This document shows, piece by piece, positions 1,913-30,164 of a DNA stretch of 31,290 nucleotides (its first letter is position 1; the number at the start of each line of letters is the position of its first letter). The DNA lies in NCBI GenBank assembly GCA_051453625.1, contig JBOZIK010000001.1, positions 47,071,378 through 47,102,667 of the forward strand. Direction: 5' to 3'. Under the pieces are notes generated by a model. It searched no databases, was not told the origin of the DNA, and saw only the letters and a list, made by a program, of their open reading frames with translations. Position numbers and translations under genes: made by a program. This DNA comes from Welwitschia mirabilis (Eukaryota).

Positions 1913-1959
1913 ATAATTAAACCAATAAATGAAGATTATAAATCATCTTCCCATTAACA

Positions 1960-5639: not shown

Positions 5640-6130
5640 AAAAAACTTTTTGTTGCTAATTTTTTAACCTCTTTTGGATGAAAAACGATAGTTTTAAATA
5701 TGTATCTTGCCTATGACTTTAGAAAAACCCTATGAAAGCCTCCTTAGATATATGCCTTTTTAAACATCTTGTTCAATTTATTGAAATTTTTCATCAAGGG
5801 ATATTTTCTTGTTAATTCTTATGAAAGTCACATTAGGACTTCTTTCTAGTTTATACCTTTACTTAGACAAAGTTTCTATTTGCAATATTTCATATAGTCT
5901 AAATTTTTTATACCCTTTTTAAATCAAATCATGGTTCTTTTTATAAATTAATATTTGAATTCATAATTATTTTTTAACATTTCCAAAAATCTAAATACTT
6001 TTTCTTACATGTCAATTTATTAATATTTTCATCTAAATCAAGCCTACAGGGTGTTCTTTTTGCATGTTCTACTTAACATGTTTTACCTTAGTTTGGTTTC
6101 ATATTTCTAAATCTAGTACTTTATACAAAA
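5640..6130 (+). pseudogene. Possible very old non-LTR (LINE) RT relic
   Basis: Weak but colinear motif echoes: LEKPYE (cf. DLEKAYD), FLVNS...LLRQSFYLQYFI (cf. GLRQGDPLSPYLFI), FLHVNLLIF (cf. FADDLLIF), then a frameshifted ISKSS. Very degraded. Confidence 0.3.
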
Positions 6131-6639
6131 CATTAAGCATATTTTTTTCTTATTAAACTTATCTTGTGCATTTATAAATGTTATAAAATGATTATTATAA
6201 AATCTTACACTCGTATTCTAAAGTTTGTATCATGCCTTATCATAAATTAGAAGTTAGATTTTACAAAATTATAATATATTTTTAGTTTGTTTAAGCATAC
6301 CTAACCACATTAAATATTTTTACTAATTAATATTCATTATTATCAATTTATCAAAACATAAATAAAATTTAATTTACATGAATTACTTAATAATTATATC
6401 ACTTCTTATGTGAAAAGTGAAAAATTAATATTTTTAAGTTAACACTATAATTTTTTTGAAAAAAGTATGCATATTAAACTAGAAAATGAACATCGAGGTG
6501 GAAAATGCCAGGGAATAATAGGAAAACTGAACTGTTCATAAAAGGGAAGTAGTCTACTAGTTGGTAAAGAGAGACTTGAGTAACAAACCAAAATGGGGGC
6601 GAAACCGTTCCTCGATGACATAGTCACAGGAATCTGCCT

Positions 6640-8050: not shown

Positions 8051-9855
8051 CTATATCTAGAAAAGGGTAGGGGGCATTATTGAAAATCAGATTTTTTCTG
8101 ATCCACTAAATCTTCCAAAAAGTTAGGTGGATCCCATCCAATAAATGCATGTCAGGGGTGTTACAGGTGTGGAAGTACTTTATCATTATGGAGATTAATT
8201 CCTTGCTCCAAACGCATTGATGAAAAAGATGTTGTATCGGTTCTGGATTAGACTGGCAGATGGGACAGTTAGGGTCTACTTGAAATCCCCTTTTGAGTAA
8301 TTAGTCTCTTATTAAAATTCTTTGATGGTCTTTTAGTTAACAAAAAACCTTATTTTTTTTTTTTTTTGGGAATCTGTCCCTTCCAATACTTCTTATAACC
8401 ATCCTGTTTTCCATACTTCTTTATAAGAATCTGCTTGGTTGAATTAGTCTGATAAATGTTCAAGTCTATGAGTTGTTAGAGAGCTTTGCTGAGATGCTTT
8501 CTTAAATAGGACTCCTCATGATCAATTATCTAATCTCTATATTTGTAGTTAATCAAATCGCACCAGGGTTGACCTCCTTCTTACAGTCTCTTTAGGATTC
8601 TATTTGTTCTAGTGACTATACAGCCTTCGGGTTTTTGAATCCCCCAACCTTCTGATTTCTTTGGGTGAGCAATAATCTTCCATTTACAGAAATGAATTTG
8701 GTGGTGATCCTTTTCTTTTGATCAAATAAAGTCATTTAAGATCCTGTTGATTTTTTATATGATATGTATTAAGGAGCGATAATGAAAGCTATGTACTGAA
8801 AGGATGAGATTAGATAGGAGTTTGTGAGAATAATTTTAGCCTTCAAGGAGAGAAAGTTATTTTGCTAGGAGTTGCACTGCATTTGAATGGATTCCAATAT
8901 GTAATTCCAGGTATTTGTCTTGTGCCAATTTCAAAGAGGGATACCTAGGTAAATATCTTGTAGGTCTTTTAACTTTATACTCAGGATTCAGGTGATTTCA
9001 CCTCATCTGATACATTTTCTATCCAAAGTGTGTATTCTTGATTTATTCTAATTAGTGTAAAGCCCTGTTGCCTCTGCAAAGATGTTCATGGAATTTTTAA
9101 TTACTTTTGTTTACTAACATAAAGGCCTGGTCATGATCATGGTATCATCTGCATAGTTATTGTTGAGAAAGGTTTGGCCTCCAATTCTAATTCTTGTAAC
9201 TTCATTCCTTCTTAAGAAAATCTATAATGAATTCATTATAAACAGAAAAAGGTATGGGAATTGGGGGTCCCCTTGTCTCAAATCTCTTCCTACTGAGAAG
9301 AAATTTGATCTATGATTATTGACCTTCAACTAAATTTAGCGGAAGCCTGCATGTCTAGCCAGAGATTAATAATATCTTGAGAGAAGCCTGTTTTTCTAAG
9401 AATACACTCTAAAGCTTGCCAACTAACAGAATTGTAAGCTTTAGCAATATCTAGTTTAGCAATAAGGAGAGGGAATTTGTATTTTTTAACAGAGTGAATG
9501 ATCTCATGAGTCAAGAGGATTTGGTCTTGGATATACCTGGATTGGATGAAGCCGGCTTGGTTCTCTGAAATCACATTGGGAAGCAGGGGGGCGATTCGGC
9601 CAACCATGATCTTTGCAAAAATTCTGTAAATGACGTTACAAACATCTAAAGGCCTAAAATCCTCTGGTTTGCTAGCATCCCTTTTTTTCGGTATGAGTAC
9701 CACTCTAGTTCTGTTCATTTTCCTAGGGATCCGTCTGTTGTGAAAGACTTCCTGCATTGCATCATGGAGGTTATCCCTTAGGATGGAGAAGTGGGATTTA
9801 AAAAGTTTGACTGGCCAACCATTAGGGCCAGGGGCTCTATTATTCTTCATGGATC
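8007..9855 (-). pseudogene. LINE copy A ORF2 fragment: reverse transcriptase + C-terminal zinc finger (zf-RVT type)
   Basis: DLRQGDPQFPYLF, NNYADDT, YLGIP, KRGFQVDPNCPICQSNPEPIQHLFHQC, FWKI*WIRKNLIFNN; multiple stops and frameshifts. Confidence 0.92.
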
Positions 9856-9955
9856 NNNNNNNNNNNNNNNNNNNNNNNNNNNNNNNNNNNNNNNNNNNNN
9901 NNNNNNNNNNNNNNNNNNNNNNNNNNNNNNNNNNNNNNNNNNNNNNNNNNNNNNN
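9856..9955. other. Assembly gap (others at 2921-2930, 10899-10908, 12917-13016, 27138-27364)
   Basis: N runs; true lengths unknown. Confidence 0.99.
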
Positions 9956-9959
9956 AATA

Positions 9960-12650
9960 TGATATGTTTAGCTTTCTTTCTTTCCAAATTTCATTAGGGG
10001 TTTTATCCATACTTACTCTTAGATAAACTTTATTGATAATGTAGCATGCAGTACTTACTGCTTCAGTCTAAAAAGTTTTAGGTACTTCCTTATCATTTAG
10101 CATCATTCTTATCATCTCTTGAAGGACTCAGATTTTCCTTTATATAATTCCATTTTGTTTTGGAGTTTTTGGGGCTAAAAAATAATGTTCTATACCATTG
10201 TCCACATAATATTTCTCAAAAAGATGATTTTCAAATTCTCCTTCATGATCGCTTAAATCTTTTTAATAGTGTATCCCTTTTTATTTTGGATTCTGTTATA
10301 GATTTCAACATAATGTTTGAAGGTTTCAGATTTATTTCATAAGAAAGAAATTCAAGTAAATCTAGAAACGTCGTCCACTATAGTCAAAACATGTCATTTT
10401 TCTCCTATACTTTTAGTTTTGGTTGGACCCGCTAAGTCCATGTGAATGAGTTCAAGTGGCATTGTTGAAGAGACCAAGTTTTTACTTTTATGAAAGGTCC
10501 TGACTTGTTTTTCTTTTTGATAAGCATCGCATAACTCATGCATATCAATATTGATCTTAGGGATTTTTTTCACAATCTTCTTTTTAATGATGATTTTAAG
10601 ATGGTCATAGTTTACATGTCCTAACTATTAGTACCATAATTCTTCTTGATTTATATGATAAAAATAACAAGCAAACAAAGATTAATCAATACTATAAATG
10701 TTGTTTATTCTATTTGGTTTAAGAAGAATATCATTTGTTTTACTATATCTAACTTCACATTTTTTACTATCAAAAATAATTGTATGACCTTTATTACCAA
10801 TCTGACTAGTACTCAGTAACTTATGTTTAAGAACATTCATATATAAAACTTCATTAATTTTAAGCATGTTACCTCCACCATGCTTTAAGTGCCTTCTANN
10901 NNNNNNNNCTTTGAAAGTTACTTATCTTTATCAAAATCGTCCAAATGTTGGAATCTTAATTTATCATCTATCATGAGCTAAGAACATCCATTATCCATGT
11001 GCCAGTAACTTCTATTTGATAATTTAAAAGCGATTTAAATCAGTAAACTTTTCAAATTATCATCCCTTGCTTACTTAGTTCTTGTAGACTATTGTAGTAT
11101 ACATTTCCTTAGGATAGATTTAAATGGAAAATTACTAATAAAGTTTGCAAAGGCGTCATATTTCTAAAATTACAAAATAATTTTGAATGACATGTCTTTT
11201 CAAACAAATGACACATAATCTTTAGCATAGAGTTATTTTGCCAAATTACCTTATCCAACTAATTTTGTGGTTTTTGAGAGATAAAACTAATAAATTTTTT
11301 GTCATGAATTGATCTTCATATTCCAAGATTTTTTTCTAATTTACTTGAACTATTATAAAATTTATTTACAAAATGAGGTAAGCTTTTTACCTCTTGAGAT
11401 AGTTTGGTTTTTTCTGTTTGAACCATCTTTTATGTTCCCTCTAACTCTTCCTTTTCCTTGTTTAGGGCCTTTACTATCTTTTTTAACTCATTGGTCTGTT
11501 TTACCAGCTTTTCACATATAGAATAGAGATCTTAATAAGTATCTTCTATCTCTTTTTAACCTTCTTCAATAGGGTCTAAATCATCTAGTTCAGTTGAACA
11601 TGATATGTTTTTCATGGGAAGGATTATTGCCATGAAAGAAAGTTTTCTATCTCCATTTGATTCTTGACTTGAGCTATTGTCTTCTTCTTCATTTACATTA
11701 TTTTAGATGGTGATGAAGGATGATGTCCTGAATTTCATTTGATCTTTTCTATTATATGCACATTCATTTACAACATGTCCATATCCCTTACACGCATAGC
11801 ATTGGATCACCTTTTTGTTTTTTGAATCTCTTCTTTGCTTGGACTGATTCCTCCTTAGTTCCTTCCTTGGTTCACCATCTTTCTTTCTTCTGTATAAGAA
11901 TTTTTTAAATCTTCTTATTAATAGATCAACTTCATCTTTACTAATGTCTTTATCTGACTTTGCAAATCTAGACTCTTTCTACATACTTTTAATGTAAGAC
12001 TTTTCTTTTTATCTTTAGGAAACTTTAACTCATAAGTTTGAAGATTACCTCATAGTCCTTTTAGTATCATTTGATTGATGTTTTTATTTTCTTCTATAGT
12101 TATGACCTTTGGTTCAAATTGTTTTAGAAGAAATCTTAGTACTTTTCATACTAACTTTTCTTCATTCATTGTCTTGCCTAGACTTGTTATAGAGTTTACT
12201 ATGTTTATTAGCCTAATACAGAATTCTTGCAGAATCTCTTCTTCTTTCATGCAAATATTTTTAAACTTAGAAATAAGCATTTGTAGCTTTGCTTATTTTA
12301 CAATGGATGTTCCTTTGTGTGCAATTTCAAGTATATTTTAAGCTTTCTTGACAAGTTAGCAGTTTAGATCCTTTTGAATTCATCTGCACAAACTACACAA
12401 AAAATAACGTTAAGAGCACAGGTATGGTTGTTTTGACTTTGTCAGTAGGATTCTATTAGTCTCGATATCTTTTAAAAACTAGGTAATTCTGTTACTATTA
12501 ATTTTAATTAGTGTAGAAATAGATAACCTCCTTTATGTCTACATCTAAACATCTAAGAAAGATTCTCATTTAGACATTCTAGTAAGCATGGTTAGTTCCA
12601 TCAAATATGGATGATCTTCTAGTAGAGATTCCATCAGTAGGATTACTCAT
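9960..12650 (-). pseudogene. Decayed copia gag-pol (gag, CCHC knuckle, protease, GAG-pre-integrase, integrase core)
   Basis: MSNPTDGISTRRSSIFDGTNHAY*NV*MRIFL at 12650; CYACKGYGHVVNEC 11760-11801; WHMDNGCS*LM (cf. WYLDSGCSRHM) ~10970-11005; ELWY**LGHVN; LELIHMDLAGP..TIVDDVSRFT; APKTPKQNGI. Confidence 0.9.
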
Positions 12651-12702
12651 GGTTGGGGTTCAGGAGCCAAAATCTATTAGGATATACAACTAACTCAACT
12701 AG

Positions 12703-12714
12703 GCTTTGATACCA
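12703..12714 (-). promoter_or_regulatory. Primer-binding site (tRNA-iMet) of the copia element
   Basis: Minus strand tggtatcaaagc (consensus tggtatcagagc), 2 nt after the LTR end ...aaca. Confidence 0.85.
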
Positions 12715-12716
12715 AA

Positions 12717-13970
12717 TGTTGAATCTAGAATCTTAGAGGAGGGGGTTGATAGGATTAAAAAAAATTGAAATACTATCTCCATAAAATATTAAACACTAGA
12801 AAATATTTTTGCATATAAAATAATCAAATGATCTATCTAAGAATGAGATTTGAAAAGAAAAATAACTAAAACTAGAAACTATTGATGGAGATCATCAAGC
12901 GTACAATTTATAGTAGNNNNNNNNNNNNNNNNNNNNNNNNNNNNNNNNNNNNNNNNNNNNNNNNNNNNNNNNNNNNNNNNNNNNNNNNNNNNNNNNNNNN
13001 NNNNNNNNNNNNNNNNAGTAGTTTGAAAATTTTCCTACTCCACTCTCAATAGTCAGCTTCTACCCAAGGCTAATTTAGATCCTTGTTAGTTACTTTCTAA
13101 TTTTCTTAAGTTTACCTATAACCTTTATACTCAAACTTTTTAAGGCTCGGTCTTAACCTTTATAGAGAAATACTTTTTAGTATCAATAGTGTGCCAAGGT
13201 GTACAAATTTTACTAGATCTAAAGTATAGCAAAGATAGTGCTACACTGTCTAAGAACGATGTCATAGATCTAAGTATGTATAGTGTGATCTATTTAACTA
13301 AAGAACTAACAGTAAAAAGAATGCATTTTTTTTATTTTGATTAGCCGAAAATCCCTTTTCATGATTTTATTTGGTTTATATAAAGGACATATTTTAGGGT
13401 TTTACAAGTGAATCTAATATTCTAATAGATGAAAATAAGGAGAAAATGGCTAGAAAATAGGATGAGAAATTTCATTTCCACCATGACCAGTCGACCTCTT
13501 GAAACATCTAAATCACCCTATTGAGTGCTGTCAGTGAAGTCGGTCGACTCCATCTTCTTTTGGTCGACTTGAGTTCTTTACATCACCTAGTCCTGTTGAC
13601 TCTATCCAGGATCCAATCAATTACATATATCTAGGTATAGTTGACTCCATTTTTGTCTCGTTGATCCCTTATAAGTATGATGCAACATGATGCAACATTT
13701 TTAGCATAGGTTTGGTTGACTCCTTAGGAGTCTGGTTAACTCCTTAGTAAACTGGATATGATCATTTTTAGTACAGTTCTGATCAATCCCTACAGGATCT
13801 GATCAACCCCTTAATTAATCTATTACTTATCAAGTACAAGCGTAGCTAGTGAGAAATGTTAGGTTACTTCTGACCTACAAGAATTATAATTTTCTACAAG
13901 AAATGCAACATATTTTGCTATACTAGAAAATATTAGTCTGATATCAACTTGGCAAAAATATAACTTAATA
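12717..13970 (-). repeat. 5' LTR of the copia element (outer boundary uncertain)
   Basis: Ends in CA next to the PBS; tatataaa TATA near 13376-13383; palindromic repeat cluster 13486-13812. The outer end is inferred as a TG>TA-mutated start near 13970. Contains a 100-N gap. Confidence 0.6.
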
Positions 13971-14465: not shown

Positions 14466-14843
14466 TTAAATCATCTTGATAAAAAATATATTTATGCTAT
14501 ACATCGTCAATTAATCCATAAAGCTCAAGCTAAGTTTAAGCATGATAAAAAGTTACTTTATAAAAAGTTTGGACCTGGTCAATTTGTCCTTGCATACAAC
14601 ACTAGAGTACATCTTGTGAATAATAAGTTGACCTATAAATTATTAGGTCCTTATGTTATAGAGAGAGTTCATTTTAATGACTCTGTTGAGATTTCCAACC
14701 TAGAAACTAAGGAGATTCAGAAAGTTAATAGATAACGATTGCAACTATATAAAAAATCTTTCGATGTAACTATGAAAATAGTAGAAGCACTTATTTTGGA
14801 GGTTTACCTCGATGAGGAGGACTTTCACCTTGTTATTGTTTGA
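14466..14843 (+). pseudogene. Athila-like Ty3 integrase C-terminal fragment (old host element)
   Basis: LNHLDKKYIYAIHRQLIHKAQAKFKHDK / KFGPGQFVLAYNTRVHLVNNKLTYKLLGPYVIERVHFNDSVEISNLETKEIQKVNR*RLQLY (cf. LNELDE..YKAKTK..HDK..F.PGQKVLLYNSRL..FPGKL.SRW.GPF....P.GAVEI.....FKVNGQRLK.Y). Confidence 0.85.
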
Positions 14844-15686
14844 ATTCTTTCTAGCTTAATCCTTTGGTAGATGTTATGATGTTATTTGATCATCTTTTAA
14901 ACTCAACTTATATGTTACTTTATAAAGTTTTCTATTACTATTATTCATACTTGGACATTTTATAGTGATAAAATTAGCTTCACCCCATCTTGAGACATTT
15001 CCATGTCTATGGACTTCACTTTAAAGGAAGATGCCTTAGTTCTTGTGTTTTTTAATGGTGTAAAGTCTTTTATTATTTGGAAGTATTCTTTTCTTTCTTT
15101 TATTTCATTTATTCACCTTCATCTTTTTGAGTGTAAGATCGTGTAGAAGTTTTTAAAGAAAAAAAAAAGAGGAAAAAAGAAAAATAAAAAGAAATAATAA
15201 CCATGATTTATTATATTTTGTGATTAAAACAAAAATACATGGTCATCATGATGTCCTATCACACTAGGGTAAATTTTTCTGAGAGGGACCTTTAGCAATG
15301 TTGATAGGTATGAAAACTCCACCAGGGGATTATTTGGTCATGCTTCATGGGTCCTTACTTCTCTGAATATGGTTGCACTTCCCTCATTATGGAAAATTTG
15401 TAATAAACTTTAAGGCTATGAGATCAGTGGTGTTCCTAGTGTCATTAGAGCTATTGCTTATTTCCTAGACTCTTAGTATTCCCACATTATCATTTCACTT
15501 TTAGGGATTTGGGTGTGTTTGTGAGGTATGAGAAAGTGAGTTTATTTTTGAGTAGCTTTTGATCTTATCATTTATTGTTCTAAGCACTTGAGTTTTGGTA
15601 TCATCATAATCACTGCCCTTTCGAGTGGAACTTTATGAAGTTTATACATTTTATTATGCATTTTTACTTAGGTGGCTTTATGATGT
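14844..15686 (+). mobile_element. 3' non-coding region of the old Athila-like host element (continues at 30165)
   Basis: ~14970-15680 is homologous to ~27690-28290 (e.g. taaaggaagatgc; catggtca..atgatgtcctac; tgggtccttacttctctga..atggttgcacttccctcat). Sequence after 30170 matches 28300 onward (gtttgctaggttagaattta.gataggta). Confidence 0.8.
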
Positions 15687-16803
15687 TGATGCCTTGCCAA
15701 ATTGTATGTATTCATTTGGGTGTTATGAGCTATTTTATAGGACTTTTATAAAGGTTAGATGCAATTCTGGGGATTTTAAAGAGTTGATGAATGATCACTG
15801 AAATATGCATTTCTTGGCACATTTAAAGGAATTTCAGGTACTTTCTGATGCTTACTTCTTTGAAAGAAGATCACTAATGCTAGAGCTAATTTCTCTTGAG
15901 TTGGAAAGCTAAATAAGATTGTCATTTCCACTATTGTCCCCATGAGAGATAAGATGATAGACCCGCACATGTTAAAATAAGATGTTGACTAGAATGGAGC
16001 TGGAACCAATGAAAGCCTTTTTTCTAAGGGTGTCATCCTCCATTTCATCCCCATGACATGAAGGATGACATATCATAATATATGAATCATCATCCCCTTG
16101 GTTATCTCCACGATAGGCAGGACAACACTTGTAATTGCTAGTCAACCTTTGTCTATTTCATTCATTTATTTCTTATAATTGAAGGCATTTTGCAGTGCCT
16201 TTTATGTGATGGTTTCACTTCTTAGCCCTATAAATAAGACTCCTCTTCGAATCTCCTTTCCATCTTCATTTACACTAGACAGTCTCATGACAGGAGATAA
16301 AAGAGATAAAGATCCATCTCGCAAGTTGCAGAAAGACATTTCCTTGGTAAAGAGTAGCACATTCTCCATTGAGGCTTAGCTATTTTGTAAACTAAATTAT
16401 GGTTCTACTTAACATAAAAGTCTATTTTATTTTTGCATTCAATTCTTTTATATTTCCATTATGATTTATGCTATCCTTAATCTGGTGATAGTTTCATTAA
16501 TGATGTAGGTCTTAAGGGCAATCTTTGTTAAGGCTAAAGAAAGTAGTTTTAGATTTATTTTTCATTGCATTTAGATTTAGTTGCACTTTCATTGCATTGC
16601 ATATTTATTTCCTATTCTATTTTTAAGTTTTAGTTACTATATTATATTTGAAAATTAATTCTCATTCTTCTCTCATAAGTCTTCATTGGCTTATGACATT
16701 TGGGTCGCTCCCATTCATACTAGAGTGTGTATCTTGCAATCTATATATTTTGATTAATAGGATTGAAGTAAGAAATGAAGTTGTAAAAATATGTACTACA
16801 ACA
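15687..16803 (+). repeat. 5' LTR (1117 bp)
   Basis: tgatgccttgccaaattgtatgta...tatgtactacaaca; TATA ctataaataag ~16228; homologous to 18782-19899 and 29056-30164. Confidence 0.92.
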
Positions 16804-16824: not shown

Positions 16825-17748
16825 AGGCTACTAAGGAGTATGACAATTATCGCCATTTGAGTGAGTAAATTATATTTCCATTTGGTTATTTATCCGTAAT
16901 GACATTGTATTTTTATTTAGGATTTATAGGTTCTTAGTTCATAATTTTTAGTTTTTCTTAGTCTATTATTAAAAGTTTGTCATTCTCTTTATCATCTCCA
17001 AGATACTAAGAATGATGATTTCTTAGTTTATTATCTATGTTTGTTTCTATGAATTTTTCTTTTAGTTTTTATTTTAACAGTAAAATAGCCATCGTCTTCC
17101 GTGTCGTTGCCACAACGAGGTAGATGATGCACATTTTCTGCATTCTATTTTCGGGTTACAACAAATTTTATCTTTCTTTTTTGGATTACAAAAAATTTTA
17201 GCTTTTTTTTTTTTGTCATCATCACCTGTGTCATTCCCATGACTAAAAGGATGACAATTTCTGTGTCTATGTTTTACTTTCAACTTTTTATGAATTTTTT
17301 GTTTTCTGTTTGTTCTTTCAGTTTTCATCATTCTCTCTGTCATCCCCATGACTAGAAGGATGAATGTTAGTTATTTTTTATTTTGTTTTCTATTGTTTTC
17401 TATTTACAGAATGCTATGATATGGTCAATATGGAAAGAAAAAGGCTACTGATAGAAGGAAGTATTAGAGAAGGATTGATCAGCTTTGAAATAGAACCAGC
17501 AATGCAATCTCTAGGTATGTATAATATCCCTTCTAATTTCTTTTTTTTTTAATCCACTTCCATGAAAGAAAATTTTTTAGAAGGTAATTTAAAAGATAGT
17601 AGCCATTATATTTTTGAATGTTAAGAATCTAGACAATTTTGATAAAAAATTTAAAGCATTAAAGAAAGTGGAACTTGATCTTCATTGTATTCTTATTTTT
17701 CTTATCATTGTGAATTATATTCTTTTTTCCCCATTCTCTTTAATTATG

Positions 17749-17935
17749 AATAGTGATACAAAGACCCTTAGGGAAATTCTTGCTAAAAGAAGGAGAAACT
17801 TGAAAATTTTTGAGGATAATAGTAAGAAAACACTTTGAGAAATTTTTATAGAAAGAAGGAGAAACTTAAAAGACTTTAAGAATAATAGTAATAAAACACT
17901 TCAAGAAATTTTTACAAAAAGAAAAAGAACAATGC
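17749..17935 (+). repeat. In-frame tandem repeat, 66-69-bp unit x~2.7
   Basis: NSDTKTLREILAKRRRNLKIFED / NSKKTL*EIFIERRRNLKDFKN / NSNKTLQEIFTKRKR starting at 17749, 17818 and 17884. Confidence 0.85.
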
Positions 17936-18781
17936 AAAATAATGTTGAGAGTAGGGATTGGTTCAATTCCTCTTTTTAACCATCTTATTATCCCACTTCT
18001 TTATTTCAAGCTTCATATAAAAATGATAATGGAAATTTTTCACATTTTAGGGATTCCACCTCATTTAGATAAACTTCTTACGATCCTTTCTTTCAATCCC
18101 ATCCATCTCCCATTACTTACCATGAAGAAGGACCATCTCTCATTAACTACTATAAGGAATACAATGATCCAATAAAAGAAATAATTGAAAAAAATAAATA
18201 AAAACTAAGAAAATATCAATAAAAGCCTAGAAAATACCGATAACAAACTAGAAAGTTTAATTAAGATCCTTTAACAAACACTATTACAAAATATAGGTTA
18301 TTTTGTAGTACAACAACCTCAAATCTATCCTTCTACATCCTATCTTAAGAAAAATGAGGATAATTTAGAAACAAATAATAATGATTATTGATTTCAAAAA
18401 GAAGATGTAATTTTAGATCAAACTTCAACATCTTACTCATTAGGAGATGAGTAAAGGAAAGACAACAATAACTCAACTAAATCTTTCAACAATAGGTATG
18501 AGGATGACCATTCATTAAATGATGATATTGAGGTATTAGATTATATCCTTAGCATCCATTGACTATGAGAAATCTAGATGAAGAATCCACTCATGAAAAA
18601 TCTGAAAATTCTTTAATCTGTAATAGGCATAATGATCACATTTCTTATTCATGCAATAAGATGATGAGAATGGTAAAAAAGGAGATGATGATGACATTGA
18701 AATATTAGATCATCCCTAGTTTTTACTTACTTTATAAGAATGAAGGAGTTCCACTTGTGAGAGAAGTTCAACTTATAAGAT

Positions 18782-19899
18782 TGATGCGTTGCCAAATTGT
18801 ATGTATTTTATGAGGTGTTATGAGCTATTTTGCAAGACTTTTATATAGGTTTAGATTCAAATTTAACAATTTTGGAGAGTTAATGAATGATCACTAAAAT
18901 ATGTAATTCTTAGCATATTTATAGGCATTTCAGGTATTTTTTTATGCTCACTGCTTTGGAAGAAGCTCACTAATGCTACAGCTAATTTCTCTTAAGTTGG
19001 AAAGCTAAGTAGGATTGTCATCCCTACTGTTGTCCCCACGAAAGCTAGGATGATAGCCCCGCACATGCCAAAATATGATGCTGACTGGATTGGAGCTAGA
19101 ACCAATGGAAGCCTCTTTTCTAAGGATGTCATCCCCATGATCGTCCCCATAACATGAAGGATAATAAACCATAATGTATGTACCATTTTCCCTATGATTT
19201 TTCCCAAGATGAGTAGCATGATACTTGTAAGCACTAGCCAACCTTTATCCATTTTATTCATTTCTTTCTTGTAATTGAGTGCATTTTACAATGCCTTTTA
19301 TGTAATGGTTTCACTTCTTAGCCTTATAAATAAGACCCCCTTCAACTCTTTTATCCATCTTCTTTGGCACCAAATATTCTCGTGATAGGAGATCAAAGGA
19401 CAGAAAATTCATCTCATAAGTTGCAGAAAGTCATTTCCTTGATGAAGGATTGTGCATCCTTCATTGAGGCTTGTCTATTTTGTAACCAAGATGCTAATTC
19501 TAATTTAATAAAAAACTCTATTATAATTATGCATTTAGTTTTATTATATTTTATTTATGGTTTATGTTGTTCTTGATCCAATAACATTTTCATTGATGAT
19601 ATAGGTCTTAAGGGCAGCCTTTGTTAAAGTTGAAGAAACTAGTTTTAGATTTATTTTGCATTGCATTTAGATTTAGTTGCACTCACATTGAATTACATCC
19701 TTATTTCCTATACTATTCTTAAGTTTTAGTTATCATATTTTCTTTGGAAATTAATCCTCATTCTTCTCTCTTAAGTCTTCAATAGGTTACAACATTTGAT
19801 CACTCCCATTCATACTAGAGTATGTATCTTGCAATCTATATATTTTGACCAAAAAAATTTTGAGTAAGACGTGAAGTTGCAAAAATATGCACTACAACA
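18782..19899 (+). mobile_element. Solo LTR of the same family, 5-bp TSD AAGAT
   Basis: tgatgcgttgccaaattg...gcactacaaca; aagat at 18777-18781 and 19900-19904; no adjacent PBS or PPT. Confidence 0.93.
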
Positions 19900-20241
19900 A
19901 AGATTAATAGAGAATTTAAGTATTGAGACAAAATTAATAAAGAAGAGTTAAGTTAGTAACAATAATTCAATAACCGAAAATAAGGATTACAGTTTGGAAT
20001 TAATAAGATTATTCAACAGAGAGGAAGAAGAGTCAGCTTAGGAATTATCAAAAAATCTTCCATCATATAATGAAGATAATGAAAAATTTCCTTTCTATAA
20101 TCTTATTAATGATCTTTTTGAGGAATTTTTTTTTTTTGAAAAAAGTATATATATTAAACTAGGAACTGTACATCAGGGGGAAAAACTGCCTAAGGGTAAC
20201 AGTAGAACTAAACTATTCATAACAGTGAATTAAACTACTAG

Positions 20242-21750
20242 TTAGTAAAGGAGAACTAAACAATAGCCAAAAATAGGTGATATTGGCCCTTGATAATAAA
20301 GTAACAAGAAACTGCCTATCGGGATGCAAACACTAGCATAAATGGACAAAATAAAACTTAAAACTGCTAAAAGACAAGGGCGAAAATGCCTCTTAAAACT
20401 AGAACTTACAGAGACCTTAGAGTTAGATGGGAGAAGCCAAGAAGAGAAAGGATATAGTCCTTTACAAAAAGGAAACATATTATCATGGTTGTGTTCGAGG
20501 AGGAATTTGCTTAGATCGTCTGAAAGGACTTCAAAACTTGATTTATTTCTTTAAATTCTTCAACACCTATAGGATTTTTATCTAGAGGAAGATGAAGAGA
20601 TTTCTTTTTGTAAGTTGACTTTATGGCCTAGGATAGAGCTTAGTGAGAGAGACCCATGGTAATAAATGGACACCTTTTCAACCCTTGAATCATTACCAAT
20701 AGGACTTTCTGTCTGGCTGCATTCATATTAAGATCTTCCTAAGGTTGATATAGAACTTCCACTGACGATGAGTCAGAAGTGAAGCTCTGAGGAGAGCTAG
20801 GGCCAAAAGTAGGAGAAGAAGAGGGTTGAGCATGCCCACCTTGTTCCTAAGGGGGAGAAGGATGAGCTAGAGATGGTTCTTGGACTAGGCTAAGAGGATG
20901 CTTCTTGAGAGTCTTCTGATGGGTCAGAAGTGAAGATGGTCCCTCTGGGTGACTTGGGGGTAAAGACAATTCCTCTAAATGACCTGGGGGTGAAGACACT
21001 CACCTCTTACTAGGGCTAAATTGAGCTTCTTTTTTCTTAGAAGTAGGATTCCTCATAGAGGAGGAACTTCTAATAGATGATCTCCTAGGGGATCCGGTAA
21101 GAACAGTGATGGGGAGGAGGGGAAGGGGTCTCTCTAGCCCGAGCTTCTTGTGCTGCTCTCCGTAGGGCCAATATTAATCTTGAGTGCCTTGAGGATTCCT
21201 TGTGTTTGAGAACTTGAATGAAAAAATAAGGTAGAGTCACCTAGTGACCTAAGTCAAGAGCTTTAAGAAATGCGAAATGGATACCTGATAGTTTAGAACA
21301 ATTTCCTGATTGAATGAAATATTGGTCCACAAGTTCTTCCCAAGTCCCTAAGGGCAGTAACGCCTTCCTACTAATGTATCCACTGGGTAGTTTGGGAACT
21401 CCACCAAAAAAGAAATCAAAAGCTTCTTATTAACCTCTACTTCTAAATGGGATACTCTCACCTTCTACTAGGATCTCCAACAGTCTAAAGAAAGATTCTT
21501 CAGAAATTTCTATTGGAATTCTTCTAAAAGTAGTTCACCCGCCTCTTCATTGCCTATAAAAGGGGGGCGATATCAGCCCTCATATCTCCTCTCAGCTTTT
21601 GTAAAAGGGGTCCCCAACCCACTGCCTATATTTTTTTCCACAGAGCTGGGCATTCCTCGAAGAGATATGGGTCTACAGGCTCAAAAGTTAGAGTGGCTTC
21701 CATGGCTATTTTAATTTGAAAATGAGTGCAGATAATCTTCCTTGCTGTAT
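20242..21750 (-). pseudogene. LINE B extra coding region (ORF3 or ORF2 extension): transposon-accessory domain + S/P linker + J-domain + hydrophobic tail
   Basis: MEATLTFEPVDPYLFEECPALWKKI*AVGWGPLLQKLRGD...IPIEISEESFFRLLEILVEGE...GYISRKALLP...QYFIQSGNCSKLSGIHFAFLKALDLGH*VTLPYFFIQVLKHKESSRHSRLILAL; S/P linker; J-domain; PCLLAVLSFILSIY. Confidence 0.82.
20494..20672 (-). pseudogene. DnaJ/Hsp40 J-domain coding segment in LINE copy B
   Basis: CPFITMGLSH*ALS*AIKSTYKKKSLHLPLDKNPIGVEEFKEINQ/FEVLSDDLSKF; PLD at 20580-20588 occupies the HPD position. Confidence 0.85.
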
Positions 21751-24700
21751 ATATAGGGAAGGGTGGGGGCATTATTAAAAATTAGATTATTTTTGATTCA
21801 CCATATCTGCCAGAAATTCAGGTTAATCCCATCCAATAAATGCATGTCAGGGGTGCTACAGGTTTGATAGTACTTTGTCATTATGACAATTAATTTCTTA
21901 CTCTAAACGCATCGATGGAAAAGATGCTATATTGTTTCTGGATTAGATTAATAGATGAGACAGTTAAGATCAACTTGAAATCCCCTTTTTGATACTTGAT
22001 CTCTTTTCAAAATCCGATGATGTTCTTTTAGCAAACAGAAAACTTTAATTTTTTTTGGTATTTATCCCCTCCAATATTTCTTGTAACCATCTTATTTGCC
22101 ATACTTCTTGATAAGAATTTATTTCGATGTTTTAATCTGAGAAATGTTCAATTCAGTAAGTTATTGGTGAGCTTTACAAAGATGCTTCCTTACATATGAC
22201 ACCCCTGATCAATAGTCTAGTTTCTATACTTATGATTAATTCAGTTACACTATGGTTGCCCTCCCTCTTGTCATCTCTTTAGGATCCTATGAGCTTCAGT
22301 GAGAATACAATATTTGGGTTTTTGAATCCCCCAACCTCCTGATTCTTTAGGACATGTAATAATGTTTTATTTACAAAGATGTATTTGGTTATGGTCTTTC
22401 CCTCCTAACCAAATGAATCCTGTCAATTTTTTATATTAAATTCTTCAGAAAGGTGATAATGAAAGCTAAATACTAGAAAGATGAGATTAAATAAAAATTT
22501 TTGAGAATGATTTTAGCCTTTGAAGAAAGAAAGTTATTGTGCTAGCAGTTGTACCTCCTTTGGATAGATTCCAAAATGTAATTCCAGATACTAGTTTTGT
22601 GCCAATTTCATAAAGGAATACCTAGGTAGATGTCTTGAAGGTCTTCTAACTTTGTGTTTATGATTAGATTGATTTCGCCTCTTTTGATACATTATCTACT
22701 CAATGTGTGTATTCTTTATTTGTTCCAATTAGTGTGAAGTCTAGTTGCCTCTGCAAATGTAGTCATGGCAATTTTTTATAGCTTTTGCTTGCTAACAGGT
22801 TACCTTGGTGATGATGATGGTATCATCCATGTAGTGATTAATGAGAAATGTTTGACCTCTAATCTTAATTTCTATAACTCCATTATTTCTTAAGAAAACC
22901 TGTAGAAAATTCATCACAAACAGAAAAAGGTATGGGGATAGGGGATCTCCTTGTCTCAAACCTCTTCCCACTGAGAATAAGTTTGATATATGGTTATTGA
23001 CATCCACACTAAATTTAGCAGAAACCTGCATGTCTAACCATAGATTAATAATATCTTGAAATAAGTCGATTTTCCTAAGAATGCACCTTAAAACTTACTA
23101 ACTAACAGAGTTATAAGCTTTAGCAATATCTAATTTAACAATGAAAAGCAGAAATTTATATTTTTGACAGAATGAATAATCTCATAAGTTAAAAGGATTT
23201 GGTCTTGGATATACCTAGAACGAATGAAACCGACTTAGTTCTCTAAAATCACGTTGGGAAGCAAGGGGACAATTCGGCTAATCATAATTTTTATAAAGAT
23301 TCTGTAAATGACATTATAGACCCCGAAGGGTCTAAAGTCCTTTGGTCTACTAGCATTCCCTTTTTTTCAATATGAAAACCACTCTAGTTCTATTCATTTC
23401 TCTAGTAATCCGTCTATTGTGAAATATTTCTTGCATTGCATCATAGAGGTTATCCCCCAGGAGAGAGAAGTATGATTTGAATAGTTCGACTGGCCATCCA
23501 TCAGGACTAGGTGCTTGGTTATTCTTCATCGATGTGACTACAGTTAAAATCTCTTCTCTACTTAGGGGTTTAATCAGCATGTGATTATTCTCCTTTAAAA
23601 GTTTTTTGTTTTCTAAAATTAGGCTAGGGGCGATATCATCCCACTTCCATATTCTCTAAAGATGGACCTGCAGTTCCTTAGCTATTTTCTTTTCATTTTC
23701 TGTGACTTGATGTCCTACTATAATTTTTCTGATTTTATTATCCGATCTATGCTGGTTGGTCTGCTGGAAGAAGAATCTAGTGTATCTATGACCCTCTATA
23801 AGCCACTTAATCCTTGAGCGTTCCCTCCAATAGTGTTCTTTATCCTCATGTATTTCTTAGAGATCCATTAGGCATTAATATTTTTTACTTCAAAAACTGT
23901 CTTGATTACCTCCCTCCTCCTACTTAGCTTAAATGCATTTGAGTTCCTTCTTAAGTTCAGTTTTTAAGTCAAAACTCTTCTTATCTTTCTTTCTCTAATC
24001 TCTTATGTGAGCCTTCAAAGTATTGATGCCTCTGTATAAGAAGGTAATAGATTGGATACCATCATAATGTGCCTAGATCTTTTTTAATAGCACTCTAGTT
24101 TCTGTCTAGTTGATTTAATATTGTTCCATATGAAATGGGGTTTTGGGGGGTGAAAATGCCCCTAGTCTAAGCATGATGAGACGGTGATCCGAGGCAACCC
24201 TGTTCAGACCATGGGCTTCAAGTAAAAGTTTATCTAGATCCTTCCTAGCCAGTACTCTATCAATCTTAGACATTATCAGCTCTATACTTGCTCTTTTGTT
24301 TGACCACATGTATTTGCATCTAGTGATGGGGACGTTTGTGAGAAAGTATCTTACTAAAAAGTCTTTTAGGATTGAAGCCCCTCTAGAGTTCCAGTTGTCA
24401 CCACCTGATTTTTTCTAGTGGTGGAGGTATTATTTAAAGTCTCTCAATATTAGCCATTTAGATTTATCTACTATAGTCTTCTGTGCTTCTTCTAAGACCA
24501 CGGCCTTATCTAGATTATACTGTAGGCTGTAGATATTTGTAACGGTCCATCCTTCATTCTTAAGGAAAATCATAATATGATTCTAACTGCTGCAAATCAG
24601 ATCTACCTCTTCTTTAGTAGAAACCAGAAGGCCACCAGAATTACCTTGGGCCACAACAGAAAAAGATGTCCATTGCTGCCTCAAATTCATATTTCCAATT

Positions 24701-24825
24701 TCATTTTTTATCTTCATTTTCTATAAGCAAACTAAATCAATATTATTTTGACTAATCAGATTTCATAGGGTTTTTTTATTTTAGGAGGACCCTAATCCCT
24801 TGCAATTCCATGAGAGACAATTCAT
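21706..24825 (-). pseudogene. LINE B ORF2 (APE endonuclease, reverse transcriptase, zinc finger); no RNase H
   Basis: MNCLSWNCKGLG at 24825; AQGNSGGLL; WLILRDFK (GDFN); SKIDRVL; ASDHRLI; QAPSPDGW; GRGLRQGDPLSPYLF; HYMDDT 22822-22833; YLGIP; HLFHRC; FWQIW*IKNNLIFNN. Confidence 0.95.
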
Positions 24826-25918
24826 TGGGGGAGTTTTCACCTCTTTTTGGGTGCTTGTCCTTTTTCTAATGTGTCTTCGATAGTAGCTTAAGAAATATTT
24901 GTGATGTTCTCTGCTATTCTGCGTTCACGTAAGGCTCTGTTACTAGGCCTTTCCTTCATCTAGATTTCCACATCATTGGATTCTTCGTCGTATAGGGTTT
25001 ATTGGGTATCATTCTCATTCACGACAGGTTGAAGTGGATTCTTCTATTTGATAACTTTCTTTTTCTTGCTTTCCTTTGGAAAAACAGTGGTTCTTTTTCT
25101 AGTTTATTCCTTCTGTTGCTTATGTCAGCATATGATCTAATTATGACCAGTCTTCCCATAAAAAGTATAGGTTTCTTTTTGCTTTTCTTTGATGTAAATC
25201 AGTCTTTTCCAGCATTCTTCACGAAGATGATCCAATCTTCTATAATGTGAGCATTTCTTCTTGGGAGGAGTACATCTTCTAGAGGGGTGTCCTGATTTTT
25301 CACAGATTGTACAAGAAGGATCAGGAGGTTCTTATATGTAACATCTAGATCATAGTTTCCTCATTTGGATCTAAACTTTATGGATTAGTGCTCTTTAGCA
25401 TCCTTAAGGCTCATCCACACATAAAATCTGGCTAATACTAATCTTATCTAGTTAATAGTGATTCAATTGAGTTTGATCAGATCTCTAAATTGACATGTCA
25501 TTTTCTTTAATAAATATTCATACTAGAACTCTAGAGGAAACTTGTGGATGCAGATATAGATCAGGAATTTCTTAAATAGATTCAGATCCGATTGTGTTTC
25601 CAGCGTCCATTTGGCTAAGGCAAGACCTCTGACTCCAAAAAACCATAGTCCTCTTGTGATTATTTCATCTTGATCTTGTTCATTGTTTAGTTGGAATAAA
25701 ACTAGCCCTTCTAGCATTACAATAATGTCAATCTTACTGACTCCTATCCATTTCATAACGACCTATTCATGGATCCAATCCAACCGAGGTCAAGGACCAA
25801 AAGAGACAAACTTGTCAATGAGGCTGAATCTAAACTTCTTCTTGATTTCACTGCACTCGTCTTCATCGATGTCTAATACAAGGGATTTCCCTTTCCTAGA
25901 AAACTGTGTCTTCTCCAT
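24822..25918 (-). pseudogene. LINE B ORF1 (DUF4283/RRM-like domain + CCHC knuckle)
   Basis: RGLWFFGVRGLALAKW..FLIYICIHKFPLEF* (DUF4283-type GPW..L.L.KW..VWV...LPLE.W); ARFYVWM; CTICEKSGHPSRRC 25272-25313. Start ATG 25918 is tentative. Confidence 0.85.
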
Positions 25919-28900
25919 CTTGGGGATAAACCCCTCAAGAAAATCCTAAAAGCTAATCAAAACTGCAAAACGAATAACTCCCGTAACTTACCTGATGAAT
26001 TCTGTCCTGTAGCCGAAAATGCCCTTCTACTCCATGATTAGGAACTGAAACTGCCCCCACCGATCTGTGATCTTTCAAGACCTGCATCCTCCTGTACTCT
26101 AGATCTACTAGAACCTCTCAAAGCCTTAGAACCCTAGCAGTGATAATTCAAATGTTTAATCTTTTTGAGGAATTTACCAACTTAGAAAAAAAATAATCCT
26201 CAACAAAATAATAAAGAATAGCAATATATAATCAATGTTATTGATAAAGATAATGAAGAAGAGGGAGATATGATCATAGAGCATAATGACAAAAGTGAAA
26301 AGATAATTCAACCAAGTAATGATGAAGTCAACAAGGAAAAGGAGAGGAATAAAAAAGAATCAATTAAAAATCAAATAAACTTAATGAAGAATAGACTTAT
26401 ACCTTTCAATGAAACAGACCAACTTAAAGAGTCTCTACATGTTTCTCTATCTTTTTAACTTATATTTCCATGCAGAACCTCAAAAGATATCCATCTTTTT
26501 ACTTTTAATTCTACATTACCTTATGATATTGATAATGATAACCTCTCTCTTTAGCCCTTTTTAATATTTAAGTAATTCTTCAAATCACATTCATGTCCTT
26601 AAATTTAATAAGACACATCACGTTGAGGACTCTACTCTAAAAATCTCTTAATCCTTTTCTTTTAAAACTTCATGTGCTACAAAAAGTAACATCTTTTCCT
26701 CTTTTGCAAAGACAAATCTGCCTTACACTTTTAATAACTACCCTTTTCAAAAATAATACTTGGAATATCTTAGAACTCTAAATTGAGGAAAACCTTATAT
26801 CTTGATCTAAATCCATGCTTAGAACTAAATGTTAAAGATTTTCTTAGGTATTTTAAACCTATCTTAATCACTCAACTTATAAAGTTTTTTTACAAATCCT
26901 TATATCCCAAATAATACCTCCCATGTTTAATATTAAGCTCTGAATGCAATTTATGTTTTAAATCCTTTATATCATGAGTTTAATAAGAGATTGTTTTTTC
27001 ATGAGTTATATGAACTTTGTATCTCTTGTTTTGCTGTTAAGTCTTGTGAAGATAAAATTTTATGTGGTCATGCTAATTGAAAAAAGTCTTATTTCTTTAT
27101 GAAAATTCATATCTTAAATTGAATGATAGAAAACTTCNNNNNNNNNNNNNNNNNNNNNNNNNNNNNNNNNNNNNNNNNNNNNNNNNNNNNNNNNNNNNNN
27201 NNNNNNNNNNNNNNNNNNNNNNNNNNNNNNNNNNNNNNNNNNNNNNNNNNNNNNNNNNNNNNNNNNNNNNNNNNNNNNNNNNNNNNNNNNNNNNNNNNNN
27301 NNNNNNNNNNNNNNNNNNNNNNNNNNNNNNNNNNNNNNNNNNNNNNNNNNNNNNNNNNNNNNNNCTTTGAGTACCTCCTCACCTGTCTTTTATAATGATA
27401 TTCATGATTTACATCATTTTAATAAGAGGTTGTTTGTTAATGACATTTATCACATTCATCTCTTATTTAAATTTTAAAAGTTGTGTTATCAAAGTTTTAT
27501 CACTCTACTCTCTCTTCCTCTAATTAATTTTACTCAAAAATGATTATATACCTTTTATGTTTTATCAATTAGTGAATTTTCTCTTAGCCTTTTCCTTTAG
27601 AGGCCATTATGATGTCACTTGATCATTTTCAAACATAACTTATGTATTTATTTCTATAACTAGTCTTTGATTTAGATATGTTACGGTGGTAACATTAGAT
27701 TCACCCAATCTTAATACATTCACATATCTATGAACTTCAGTCTAAAGGAAGATGCTTTATTTTTAATGTTTTTCTGAGTAATAAAAGGTCTTAGATTGTT
27801 TAAGGGTTTTCTTTTCTATTTTTTATCTTATTACTTCACCTTTGTCTTTTGGAGTGTTTTGGTTCTTTGTGGGGGAAAAACGTGAAATAAGACTATGATG
27901 TTTTATATTTGAGATAGTTCAAAAACATGGTCACTATGATGTCCTACTGTAAGTGCACCTAGGCAAATTTTTCCGAGAGGGATCTTTCATATTGTAATAT
28001 GTTAGCTATGAGAAATCTACAAGGGGGTCAATTGGCCATGCATCGTGGGTCCTTACTTCTCTGATTATGGTTGCACTTCCCTCATCATGAATAGTTAAAT
28101 AATAAAATAATAAAAACTTGGAGGCTATGGGATTAGTGGTGTTTCTGGTATCATCAGAGGCATTTCTTGTTTTCTAGACTCTTTAATCTTATTATTTAAA
28201 GCATTTAATTTTTAACATCATCATAACTGCTGCCTTATTGAATGAAATTTTTTATACATCAATTCATGCATTTTTAAATCAAGTAATGTTATAATTTCTA
28301 GTTTGCTAGGTTAGAATTTAGGATAGGTACGCTATCTTATTTATGTTGCCTTATGTCCATTCTTTTTGTTTTCTTTTGTTATTTAGTTAGTTATTTCAAA
28401 GTTATTTCTGTATTTTCTTATCATTTTAGGACCTTAACATTTAATAGTTTCTTTACCTATTTTTCAATAAAGAATACTTTTCTTGCTTAGATGAGTTTTC
28501 TTAATAGTTTTATGATATTTATTTTTAGTCTTTTGGAGTTCTAAATGTTGCTATTAATTATTTTTGTGATGGTGCATTTGTTGAGCATTCATGGATCTGC
28601 TTCATTGTAATTAGCACATTTTCATTGTCTACTCTTTCTATGCTTATTAGAATTATTTATACATCTTTATTGCTACACTTAGCTATGCACTTAATTCATC
28701 CATTGTCTAAATTCAAAAGCATCCATCATCTGCCTTTTCATTCTCGTCTGCTTTTTTCATTTTCTTCACTGATACAAGATGTATTGTTTTTCTTCGAGGA
28801 GGGTAGAACTCATCTTCATGTTTCATTTTCATATTTTTTTGAGTTATTTTAGAGCTTTCATAAGACATAATTTTTGAAATTCTCACTCCATACACGTGAT

Positions 28901-29055: not shown

Positions 29056-30164
29056 TGATGTATTATCAAATTGTATGTATTTGATGGGGTGTTATGAGCT
29101 ATTTTGCAGGAATTTTATACAAGTTTAGATGTAATTCTAAGAATTTTAGAGAGTTGATGGATGAGAACTAAAATACGTAATTCTTGGCATATTTAAAGGC
29201 ATTCCAGGCACTTTCTGATGCTCACTGCTTTAGAAGAAGATCACTAATGCTAAAGTTAATTTCTCTTGAGTTAGGAAGCTAAGGAAAACTGTGATCCTTA
29301 TGACAGATAGGATGATAGACTTGTACATGATAAAAGAGAATACTAACTAGATGGGAGCTAGGACCAATGAAAGCCTCTTTCCTAAGGGTGTCATCCCTTT
29401 CATGTCATCCCCATAACATGAAGGATTAAAAATCACAATGTATGAACCATCATTCCCTTGGTCATCTCCACGATAGTGAGGATGACACTTGTAACCACCA
29501 GTCGATCTTTGTTTGTTTCATTTATTTCTTTCTTATAATTTATCATGTTTTACAGTGCCTTTGGTGTAATGATTTAGTTTATTAGCTCTATAAATAAGAC
29601 CCCTCTTCGAATCTTCTCTCCATCTTCATTTATACTAGATAGCCTCATGATAGGAAATTAAAGGGCTAGAGATCCATCTTGTGAGTTACAGAAAGACGTT
29701 TCATTGGTGAAGGGCTGTGCATCCTTCATTAAGGCTTGGATATTTTATAACCTAGATGCTAGTTCTACTTAATATAAGACTCCATCTCATTTATGCATTC
29801 AATCCTATTATATTTTTCTTATGATTTATGTTGTCCTTGATTAGGTAACAGTTTCATTGACGATATAGGTCTTAAGAGCAGTTTTTGTTAAGCCTAAAGA
29901 AAGTAGTTTTAGATTTATTTTGCATTACATTTAGATTTAGTTACATTTGCATTGCATCTCATCTTTATTTCTTGCACTGTTCTTAAGTTTCGGTTACCAT
30001 ATTCCCTTCAAAAATCAATTCTCATTCTTCTCTCATAAGTCTTCAATAGGTTAAGAAATTTAGGTCACTTCCATTCATACTAGAATGTGTATTTTACAAT
30101 CTATATATTTTGACTAATAGAATTTGGAGTAATACATAAAGTTGCAAAAATACACACTACAACA
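29056..30164 (+). repeat. 3' LTR (1109 bp)
   Basis: tgatgtattatcaaattgtatgta...tacacactacaaca. Shares diagnostic segments with the 5' LTR (catcttcattta.actaga; atctccacgatag) that differ in the solo LTR. Confidence 0.92.

Follow-up and report, generated by a model that had tools for sequence, protein, structure and literature searches.

A candidate J-domain protein gene between ORF2 and the poly(A) in an L1-type LINE lineage from Welwitschia mirabilis

Introduction

Long interspersed nuclear elements (LINEs) are thought to need only the proteins of their first two open reading frames (ORF1p and ORF2p) plus host factors, and host Hsp70 and Hsp40 are recurrent partners of retroelements and viruses. 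Accessory modules gained by elements without long terminal repeats (non-LTR elements) include RNase H, esterase, PHD and helicase, and plant L1 LINEs reportedly acquired RNase H behind the reverse transcriptase (RT) and zf-RVT, a gain that Smyshlyaev et al. are said to have described in 2013. In this work, we analyzed a stretch of 31,290 nucleotides (nt) from Welwitschia mirabilis (GenBank assembly GCA_051453625.1, contig JBOZIK010000001.1, positions 47,071,378 to 47,102,667 of the forward strand), called here the window, in which two copies of an L1-type LINE carry a module of about 1.5 kb between zf-RVT and poly(A). An earlier note on this DNA had read the module as J-domain (DnaJ, Hsp40) cargo of a LINE family; we tend to regard it as a third gene, ORF3.

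The J-domain stimulates ATP hydrolysis by Hsp70 via its HPD tripeptide, and Hsp70 then locks onto the client of the J-protein. The large and small T antigens of polyomaviruses are viral J-domain proteins, and in plants the SDJ/DNAJ1-2 J-proteins work with SUVH1/3. Stop/start coupling of LINE ORFs occurs in SART1, with its UAAUG, and in human L1, where ORF2 is reached by reinitiation. Insect R1, TRAS and Jockey LINEs have an added C-terminal superfamily 1 (SF1) helicase domain (PMC4686597, PMC6338049), and in a review on accessory domains of retrotransposon polyproteins the words DnaJ, chaperone and Hsp occur 0 times (PMC6338049). The gain of accessory modules by LINEs (RNase H, SF1 helicase) is already known, and the J-protein gene would be the new part. 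As the earlier note had supposed, no retrotransposon encoding a J-domain, and no LINE of such architecture, is described in the titles and abstracts of the literature matches listed, which come from full-text searching, with subscription journals, Repbase and supplements outside reach.

The plant L1s with RNase H have the same backbone as the Welwitschia LINE (ORF1 with DUF4283 and CCHC; ORF2 with endonuclease (EEP), RT and zf-RVT) and the same insertion point 3' of the zinc-binding domain; however, their RNase H is fused to ORF2, whereas the Welwitschia LINE has a J-protein gene with its own ATG. The insect R1, TRAS and Jockey elements likewise bear a foreign accessory domain, placed 3'-terminally in the LINE coding region, but differ in the domain itself, in the host kingdom and in the proposed role (antiviral or RNA helicase). 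With the polyomavirus T antigens the likeness stands at the level of the J-domain family: there, a parasite's own J-domain and a targeting part put host Hsc70 on its own complexes, as is proposed here for ORF3, although the J-domain is N-terminal in the DNA virus and C-terminal in the ORF3 of the non-LTR retrotransposon. SILENZIO and SDJ/DNAJ1-2 combine, like ORF3, a J-domain with an unrelated targeting region and lack DnaJ C-terminal domains, and they are linked to transposable element (TE) expression; they are host genes, whereas ORF3 is a gene of the element, likened to them by architecture. Finally, the ORF3 ATG abuts or overlaps the ORF2 end (TAATG in copy A, in one candidate frame) in the manner of SART1 and human L1, but A and B each offer two candidate frames for the end of ORF2, and in a diverged relative, L001, ORF2 and the ATG share a frame and no stop lies between.

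Results

The two copies in the window lie on the minus strand. Element B (20127-26158) is a decayed full-length LINE, and copy A (6451-9855) is the 3' part of a diverged member, with RT, zf-RVT and the ORF3 module, which ends at the assembly gap 9856-9955. In both, the module takes up about 1.5-1.6 kb between zf-RVT and poly(A). In element B, the stretch 21750-20242 is flanked by zf-RVT at 22109-21894 and poly(A) at 20137-20127; its minus strand reads CPFITMGLSH*ALS*AIKSTYKKKSLHLPLDKNPIGVEEFKEINQ (asterisks are stops), followed by FEVLSDD past a frameshift, and the reading of the module crosses stops and frameshifts in A as well as in B. The alignment of copy A (6451-9854) to 20131-23533 has 3453 columns and 74.4% identity and is unbroken from RT via the module to the poly(A), which in copy A is at 6451-6457. 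Both the place of the module and its presence at the same place in the diverged copy are therefore as the earlier note had stated.

Six module frames, three from each copy, were scanned, and Pfam DnaJ (PF00226; curated threshold 27.8 bits) was the sole family matched at E<=10. The J-domain of copy A (6812-7000, minus strand), which has HSD for HPD and one stop, reached 36.0 bits (E=7.8e-9), and its best sequence matches in the PDB were the J-domains of dnj-12 (E=1.6e-7) and DNAJA1 (E=2.7e-6). In copy B (20485-20672, minus strand) the domain has PLD for HPD at 20588-20580 and two stops, and a private frameshift near 20537 cuts it, which leaves its score below threshold (14.4 bits, E=0.041). The diverged relative L001 matched DnaJ with 35.4 bits (E=1.2e-8) over positions 2-63 of 63, so that the profile check proposed for the J-domain gave scores above threshold in two diverged sequences. 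No Gly/Phe, DnaJ_CXXCXGXG or DnaJ_C match was obtained in Pfam (module frames at E<=10; the L001 J translation, P0012, at E<=1), and since these domains are missing, the predicted ORF3 product would be a class III (C) J-protein with a C-terminal J-domain.

The substitutions between copies A and B bear the mark of coding sequence. The ratio of nonsynonymous to synonymous change (dN/dS; NG86 method) in the coding frame was 0.17 for the N-terminal domain of ORF3 (N-domain; 137 codons). The 54 codons at the front of the J-domain gave 0.11, and the next segment of 49 codons, which takes in its remainder and the residues beyond, gave 0.21. The two other frames of the same module DNA gave 0.81-2.12, and sliding windows along ORF2, best frame, 0.11-0.30. 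As an excess of transitions (570, with 252 transversions) inflates apparent synonymous change, neutral decay was simulated 1000 times with the observed base-specific spectrum, and the uncorrected ratio (pN/pS) had neutral medians of 0.60-0.69 for the N-domain, J and after-J segments (0.63 for the N-domain). The observed pN/pS was 0.29 for the N-domain and 0.24 for the J-domain, values as low as which came up in 0/1000 simulations each, and 0.30 for the after-J segment (2/1000), beside 0.21-0.33 for the ORF2 controls. The linker is under weak constraint (0.55, as low in 19/1000), and the first 44 codons after the ORF3 ATG, with 0.56, did not differ significantly from the neutral simulation. Most of the divergence between A and B in the N- and J-domains thus appears to have arisen while these were coding, with the same stringency as ORF2. 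Purifying selection equal to that on ORF2 would not be expected for passive cargo.

A profile of the two N-domains, searched against 1,835,955,588 representative proteins with a cut-off of E<=0.001, found three matches, all of them short ORFs of 86-148 amino acids (P0009, P0010 and P0011). P0009 led to L001, a metagenome contig of 13,874 nt whose plus strand has, in this order, the Pfam families DUF4283 (E=5e-20), Exo_endo_phos_2, RVT_1 (E=2.6e-18) and zf-RVT, then N-domain, linker, J-domain and an A-run; CCHC motifs were read in the translation of its ORF1. The N-domain homologue in L001 is led by an ATG, in frame with ORF2 with no stop between, and shares 39% identity with copy A over 117 amino acids (E=1e-20); a charged linker of ~1.4 kb separates it from the J-domain. 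Compared with the window copies by tblastn, the ORF1, endonuclease and RT pieces of L001 have 28-57% amino acid identity and the N-domain 42-46%, and no nucleotide similarity was found apart from the alike 3' termini. The module thus seems to have diverged in step with ORF2, and because the same order of parts is kept in a LINE with 28-57% ORF2 identity, it must be old and not a recent transduction of a host mRNA. Taken with the pN/pS of 0.24-0.30 against a neutral ~0.6-0.7, this second lineage bears out the view that the module is a family feature and not a one-off 3' transduction, and the N-domain-linker-J gene would be a feature of a LINE clade. The refuting conditions set in the earlier note were checked, and none spoke against its reading. 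A scan of metagenome contigs with the alignment of A and B gave 430 pattern matches and 0 relatives.

The 3' termini of the two lineages read TAATAT..ATACTTTTTTCAAAAAAA in the window (20131-20175 and 6451-6495) and ATATACTCAAGTTTTCTCAAAAAAAAA in L001 (7985-8017), and may represent a conserved 3' recognition end. The part of L001 3' of the LINE (8018-13874) has 27-28% G+C and no long ORFs, and looks like plant AT-rich intergenic DNA.

The ORF3 of copy B starts with an ATG at 21701-21703 in the context GCCATGG. P0010, a 91-amino-acid ORF from the Welwitschia mirabilis transcriptome assembly in EukProt, begins at this very ATG and has 75% identity to B over residues 1-48 (21703-21560) and 47-90 (21564-21433), passing the frameshift of B without any stop. 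This match across the break in B shows that ORF3 has its own start codon and that one or more members of the family are transcribed with the 5' part intact. By alignment with B and P0010, copy A has its ATG at 8007-8005 and its N-domain at 7405-8007. The ORF2 frame closes at most ~25 nt from the ORF3 ATG in either candidate frame of A and B. It is possible that ORF3 is expressed by reinitiation at the ORF2 stop or as a fusion to ORF2, the latter being possible in L001. The third match, P0011, is a 148-amino-acid ORF on a 2.5-kb Logan contig with its own Met start; it covers the helical half of the N-domain (profile E=2.5e-4), has 34-40% identity to the window copies over 50-58 amino acids and is a distant relative.

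The N-domain of B (21100-21703, ~200 amino acids) is broken by stops and by the 1-nt frameshift in a C-run near 21563. It has no Pfam match at E<=10 (P0007, P0008, P0009, P0010, P0011 and the module frames) or E<=1 (P0013), which includes PF20167 (putative plant transposon protein) and PF10536 (plant mobile domain), the two families to be checked according to the earlier note; a remote kinship of the N-domain to PF10536 or PF20167 may nevertheless exist. Profile search against the PDB gave nothing below E=0.57. An AlphaFold2 (AF2) model built from six sequences had a mean confidence (pLDDT) of 55.8, reaching ~70 in the helical C-terminal half only, and with this poor model as query the best fold matches were Z 4.4 in VIA and E 0.35 in the Foldseek PDB search. 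Homologue searches with the copy A N-domain (longer and near lengths) and with P0010 (longer lengths) found no match.

In B, the N-domain is followed by a disordered, Ser/Pro/Gln-rich linker (20715-21099), in which the two copies differ by in-frame indels, and then by the J-domain. ORF3 would end within the first ~10-25 nt of the segment 20138-20466, the rest of which is a probable 3' untranslated region (UTR), judging from the stop of copy A, the comparison of A with B, and L001. This stop (6781-6779) is directly 3' of ...CRGL and falls 21 codons after LSDD, and copy B has one base different there. In L001 the J-domain is followed by ~47 codons, two stops, ~140 nt and the A-run, and no hydrophobic tail is present. 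Thus, the N-domain, the Ser/Pro/Gln linker and the J-domain of the translation first proposed are upheld, but the hydrophobic tail at its end, although readable as translation, has no support as coding sequence: the region is T-rich and gives hydrophobic residues in any frame, and its pN/pS of 0.50 was not significant against the neutral simulation. We considered this tail as a membrane anchor and rejected it in view of its pN/pS, the stop of copy A and the tailless L001; it is probably 3' UTR.

The breaks in the module appear to be decay private to each copy. Ten stops are found in each copy over 37 stop-prone codon columns, two of them common against 2.7 expected by chance, and where just one copy has a stop, its partner mostly reads CAG, CAA or TGG. 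For each frame offset common to A and B, a pair of private indels can be the explanation, one in either copy, which lie in C-rich runs a few dozen bases from each other. There is no need to invoke an intron or programmed frameshifting for these offsets, as private indels suffice and P0010 reads through one of them. Both window copies are dead, carrying stops, frameshifts and a mutated HPD that arose mostly by C>T/G>A decay. The spectrum between A and B has C>T at 0.285 per C and G>A at 0.206 per G, and family contigs differ from B mostly by A>G and T>C. Welwitschia TEs are described as heavily methylated and strongly deaminated (PMC8275611), and the spectrum between A and B looks like the signature of methylated-cytosine deamination described there.

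Contigs of two DNA runs, under two organism labels, were placed on element B at 80% likeness (36463 and 31260 contig pieces). Per run, 35-64 contigs cover the J-region positions 20415, 20587, 20811 and 20819, 66-101 the N-domain positions 21162 and 21602, and 54-118 the ORF2 positions; dozens of separate contigs per run carry the module, and the family is large, extending beyond A and B. By summed depth, the bins of the N-domain (21135-21755) had 2120-4096, those of the linker and J (20307-21134) 433-1427, and those spanning RT to zf-RVT in ORF2 (21756-23618) 1899-11748. Within the module, depth peaked in the bin 20100-20306 (8108 and 6978 in the two runs).

In two raw RNA runs, 145 and 329 reads matched B at 80% likeness, of which 129 and 297 were less than 90% alike, and 72% and 63% of the matched material continues into unlike sequence. 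Groups of 3-6 reads match just 40-60-nt stretches at 20644-20691, 20792-20848 and 22924-22966, beyond which they continue into unlike sequence, with fully consistent loose ends. Short pieces of J region, linker and RT are thus present in some transcripts from elsewhere in the genome.

Apart from the module, element B has the features of a plant L1-type LINE, namely an ORF1 with DUF4283 and CCHC, an ORF2 with APE-type endonuclease, RT and zf-RVT, and a poly(A) with a target-site duplication. All of these lie on the minus strand. The DUF4283 of ORF1 is at 25418-25780 (PF14111, E=1.6e-11), and CCHC knuckles were read in translation 3' of it, at ~25330-25200. The endonuclease (EEP) remnant of ORF2 at 24133-24342 has no Pfam match at E<=0.01 and was recognisable by tblastn with the relative alone (EEP piece of L001, 39% over 71 amino acids, E=6e-11). 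The RT is at 22777-23366 (RVT_1, E=8.2e-11, and a second piece in another frame), and zf-RVT (PF13966, E=1.3e-10) at 21894-22109 is near the ORF2 end. The poly(A), an A-run of ~11 bases at 20127-20137, closes the element. Its edges are a 15-bp direct repeat, ATTCCTCAAAAAGAT, which read directly forms the 5' target-site duplication at 26159-26173 and, with the same letters, the 3' one at 20112-20126 (in minus-strand order, 26173-26159 and 20126-20112). The element had been described as complete and bounded by a target-site duplication, and as having the module in the place of RNase H; the duplication, the A-run and the DUF4283, RVT_1 and zf-RVT matches agree with the former, and for the latter no RNase H was matched by Pfam at E<=0.01 in any frame of element B or L001.

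In one DNA run (X1), T-rich loose ends occur at 20126 in 94 records, and 20124/20126 is linked to 26189 by two contigs per listed joint (two joints), with 15-19 other letters between. These contigs look like empty-site paralogues of the target of element B. Because they link both flanks with 15-19 diverged letters between, element B sits inside an older repeat, and its insertion site (20100-20126 with 26189-26300) is itself repeated.

With 30.9% G+C the window is AT-rich; this composition, the strong C>T/G>A bias and the P0010 match all fit an origin from Welwitschia or a close relative. It contains five assembly gaps and other repeats. A repeat of ~1.1 kb occurs in three copies of the same orientation (15678-16803, 18773-19899 and 29056-30164) with 79-81% mutual identity; two of them lie just upstream of the 3' flank of element B, and the translations share Cys/His/Asp-rich stretches. 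A dispersed pair, 14841-15474 and 27573-28183, has 69% identity over 658 columns, and short tandem arrays of 2-2.4 copies each, with periods of 27, 71, 106, 30 and 66 nt, are found at 988-1913 and 17143-17923.

Discussion

According to these data, the 1.5 kb module is somewhat more probably a third gene of an old plant L1-type LINE lineage than junk captured once. Going one step further, we put at roughly even odds (a probability of about 0.5) the reading that a seed-plant L1 clade encodes its own Hsp70 co-chaperone, ORF3, made of an orphan targeting domain and a J-domain and kept since before the lineages of the window copies and L001 split. The N-domain of ORF3 would be the targeting part that binds a client or site, the simplest client being the element's own particle of ORF1p, ORF2p and RNA. 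The J-domain would trigger ATP hydrolysis in host Hsp70/Hsc70, so that the chaperone clamps on the client, and the outcome could be the folding of the large ORF2 protein or the assembly, remodelling or import of the ribonucleoprotein particle (RNP). The recruitment of Hsp70 by ORF3 is inferred here by analogy with known J-proteins.

The same structural and selection evidence would apply if ORF3 acted against host silencing, as a J-protein at methylated chromatin or methyl-DNA readers that antagonises or mimics host complexes of the SILENZIO-MBD5/6 and SDJ/DNAJ-SUVH1/3 types and keeps LINE promoters active. The host genome would fit such a role, with methylated and deaminated TEs (PMC8275611) and an excess of transitions between A and B (570, with 252 transversions), and the plant J-protein SILENZIO acts with MBD5/6 and HSP70 (PMC8616336). 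However, nothing points specifically to this role, and no methyl-binding, SUVH-like or chromatin domain was found in the N-domain by the Pfam, PDB and fold searches; thus we regard it as unlikely. It is less likely still that the module consists of two genes, an N-domain ORF that ends at the TAG 21087-21085, common to A and B, and a linker-J part reached by frameshifting, reinitiation or splicing. The linker-J part is indeed out of frame with the N-domain in A, B and L001, and the common stop comes in the N-domain frame shortly after the domain, but with an offset of +1 for the window copies and -1/+2 for L001, no conserved frameshift signal is implied. Moreover, the two parts join in a C-rich run prone to indels, a single private indel in each copy accounts for the offset just as well, and the linker frame has no conserved ATG where it begins. 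In our inference, ORF3 is one continuous ORF, with two ORFs as a possible alternative.

A third possibility is that the module is passive cargo, a fragment of a host DnaJ gene picked up by 3' transduction or template switching and without function for the element. In its favour, the position of the J-domain between ORF2 and poly(A) is that of transduced sequence, stops and frameshifts abound in both window copies, and the depth over J is below that over ORF2. Nevertheless, the module is under purifying selection equal to that of ORF2, in the coding frame only, keeps its order of parts in a LINE with 28-57% ORF2 identity and has its own ATG at the ORF2 stop, and among 1.84 billion representative proteins there is no host protein with the N-domain, the three matches being ORFs of 86-148 amino acids. 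We therefore consider passive cargo very unlikely. A spurious DnaJ-like translation in AT-rich decayed DNA could be suspected from copy B, which alone reaches E=0.041 only, but copy A and L001 are two independent DnaJ matches above threshold, DnaJ is the sole family matched in the scanned frames and the substitutions between A and B are codon-structured, so that chance or artefact has a negligible probability.

Returning to ORF3 as a co-chaperone gene, it must be taken into account that several observations weigh against it. The HPD tripeptide, through which Hsp70 is stimulated, is HSD in A, PLD in B and YLD in L001, all decayed copies, and its Pro is seen in none of the three. Five of the six base changes can be explained as C>T from His-Pro-Asp codons, the exception being the A>C transversion behind His to Pro in B, and the losses of HPD fit the C>T decay spectrum. 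Nearly all family depth at position 20587 has the base that gives His (452.6/452.6 and 420.5/427.5 depth units in the two DNA runs), and for this reason the Pro at the first HPD position is private to copy B. The N-domain, the proposed targeting part, is without a family or fold match in Pfam, AF2, VIA and Foldseek, and in A, B and L001 its frame differs from that of linker-J. The estimates of selection come from one pair of copies, A and B. L001 may be from another plant or from a distant family of the same genome. Finally, the depth over linker and J is 4-40% of that in the ORF2 bins from RT to zf-RVT in the DNA runs; many members may lack linker and J, or they may diverge below the 80% used for placement, since even A and B are only 63-74% alike there.

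If the co-chaperone reading is true, this LINE would be the first retrotransposon known with its own J-protein, the retroelement counterpart of the strategy of the polyomavirus T antigens, and co-chaperones would join the short list of accessory modules of non-LTR elements. It would also show that the recruitment of chaperones is so limiting that a LINE bears the cost of 1.5 kb of additional sequence. The pair of ORF3 and Hsc70, together with the orphan client-binding domain, would then offer a handle on the assembly and Hsp70 dependence of LINE RNPs or, in a genome of extremely methylated and deaminated TEs, on their escape from silencing.

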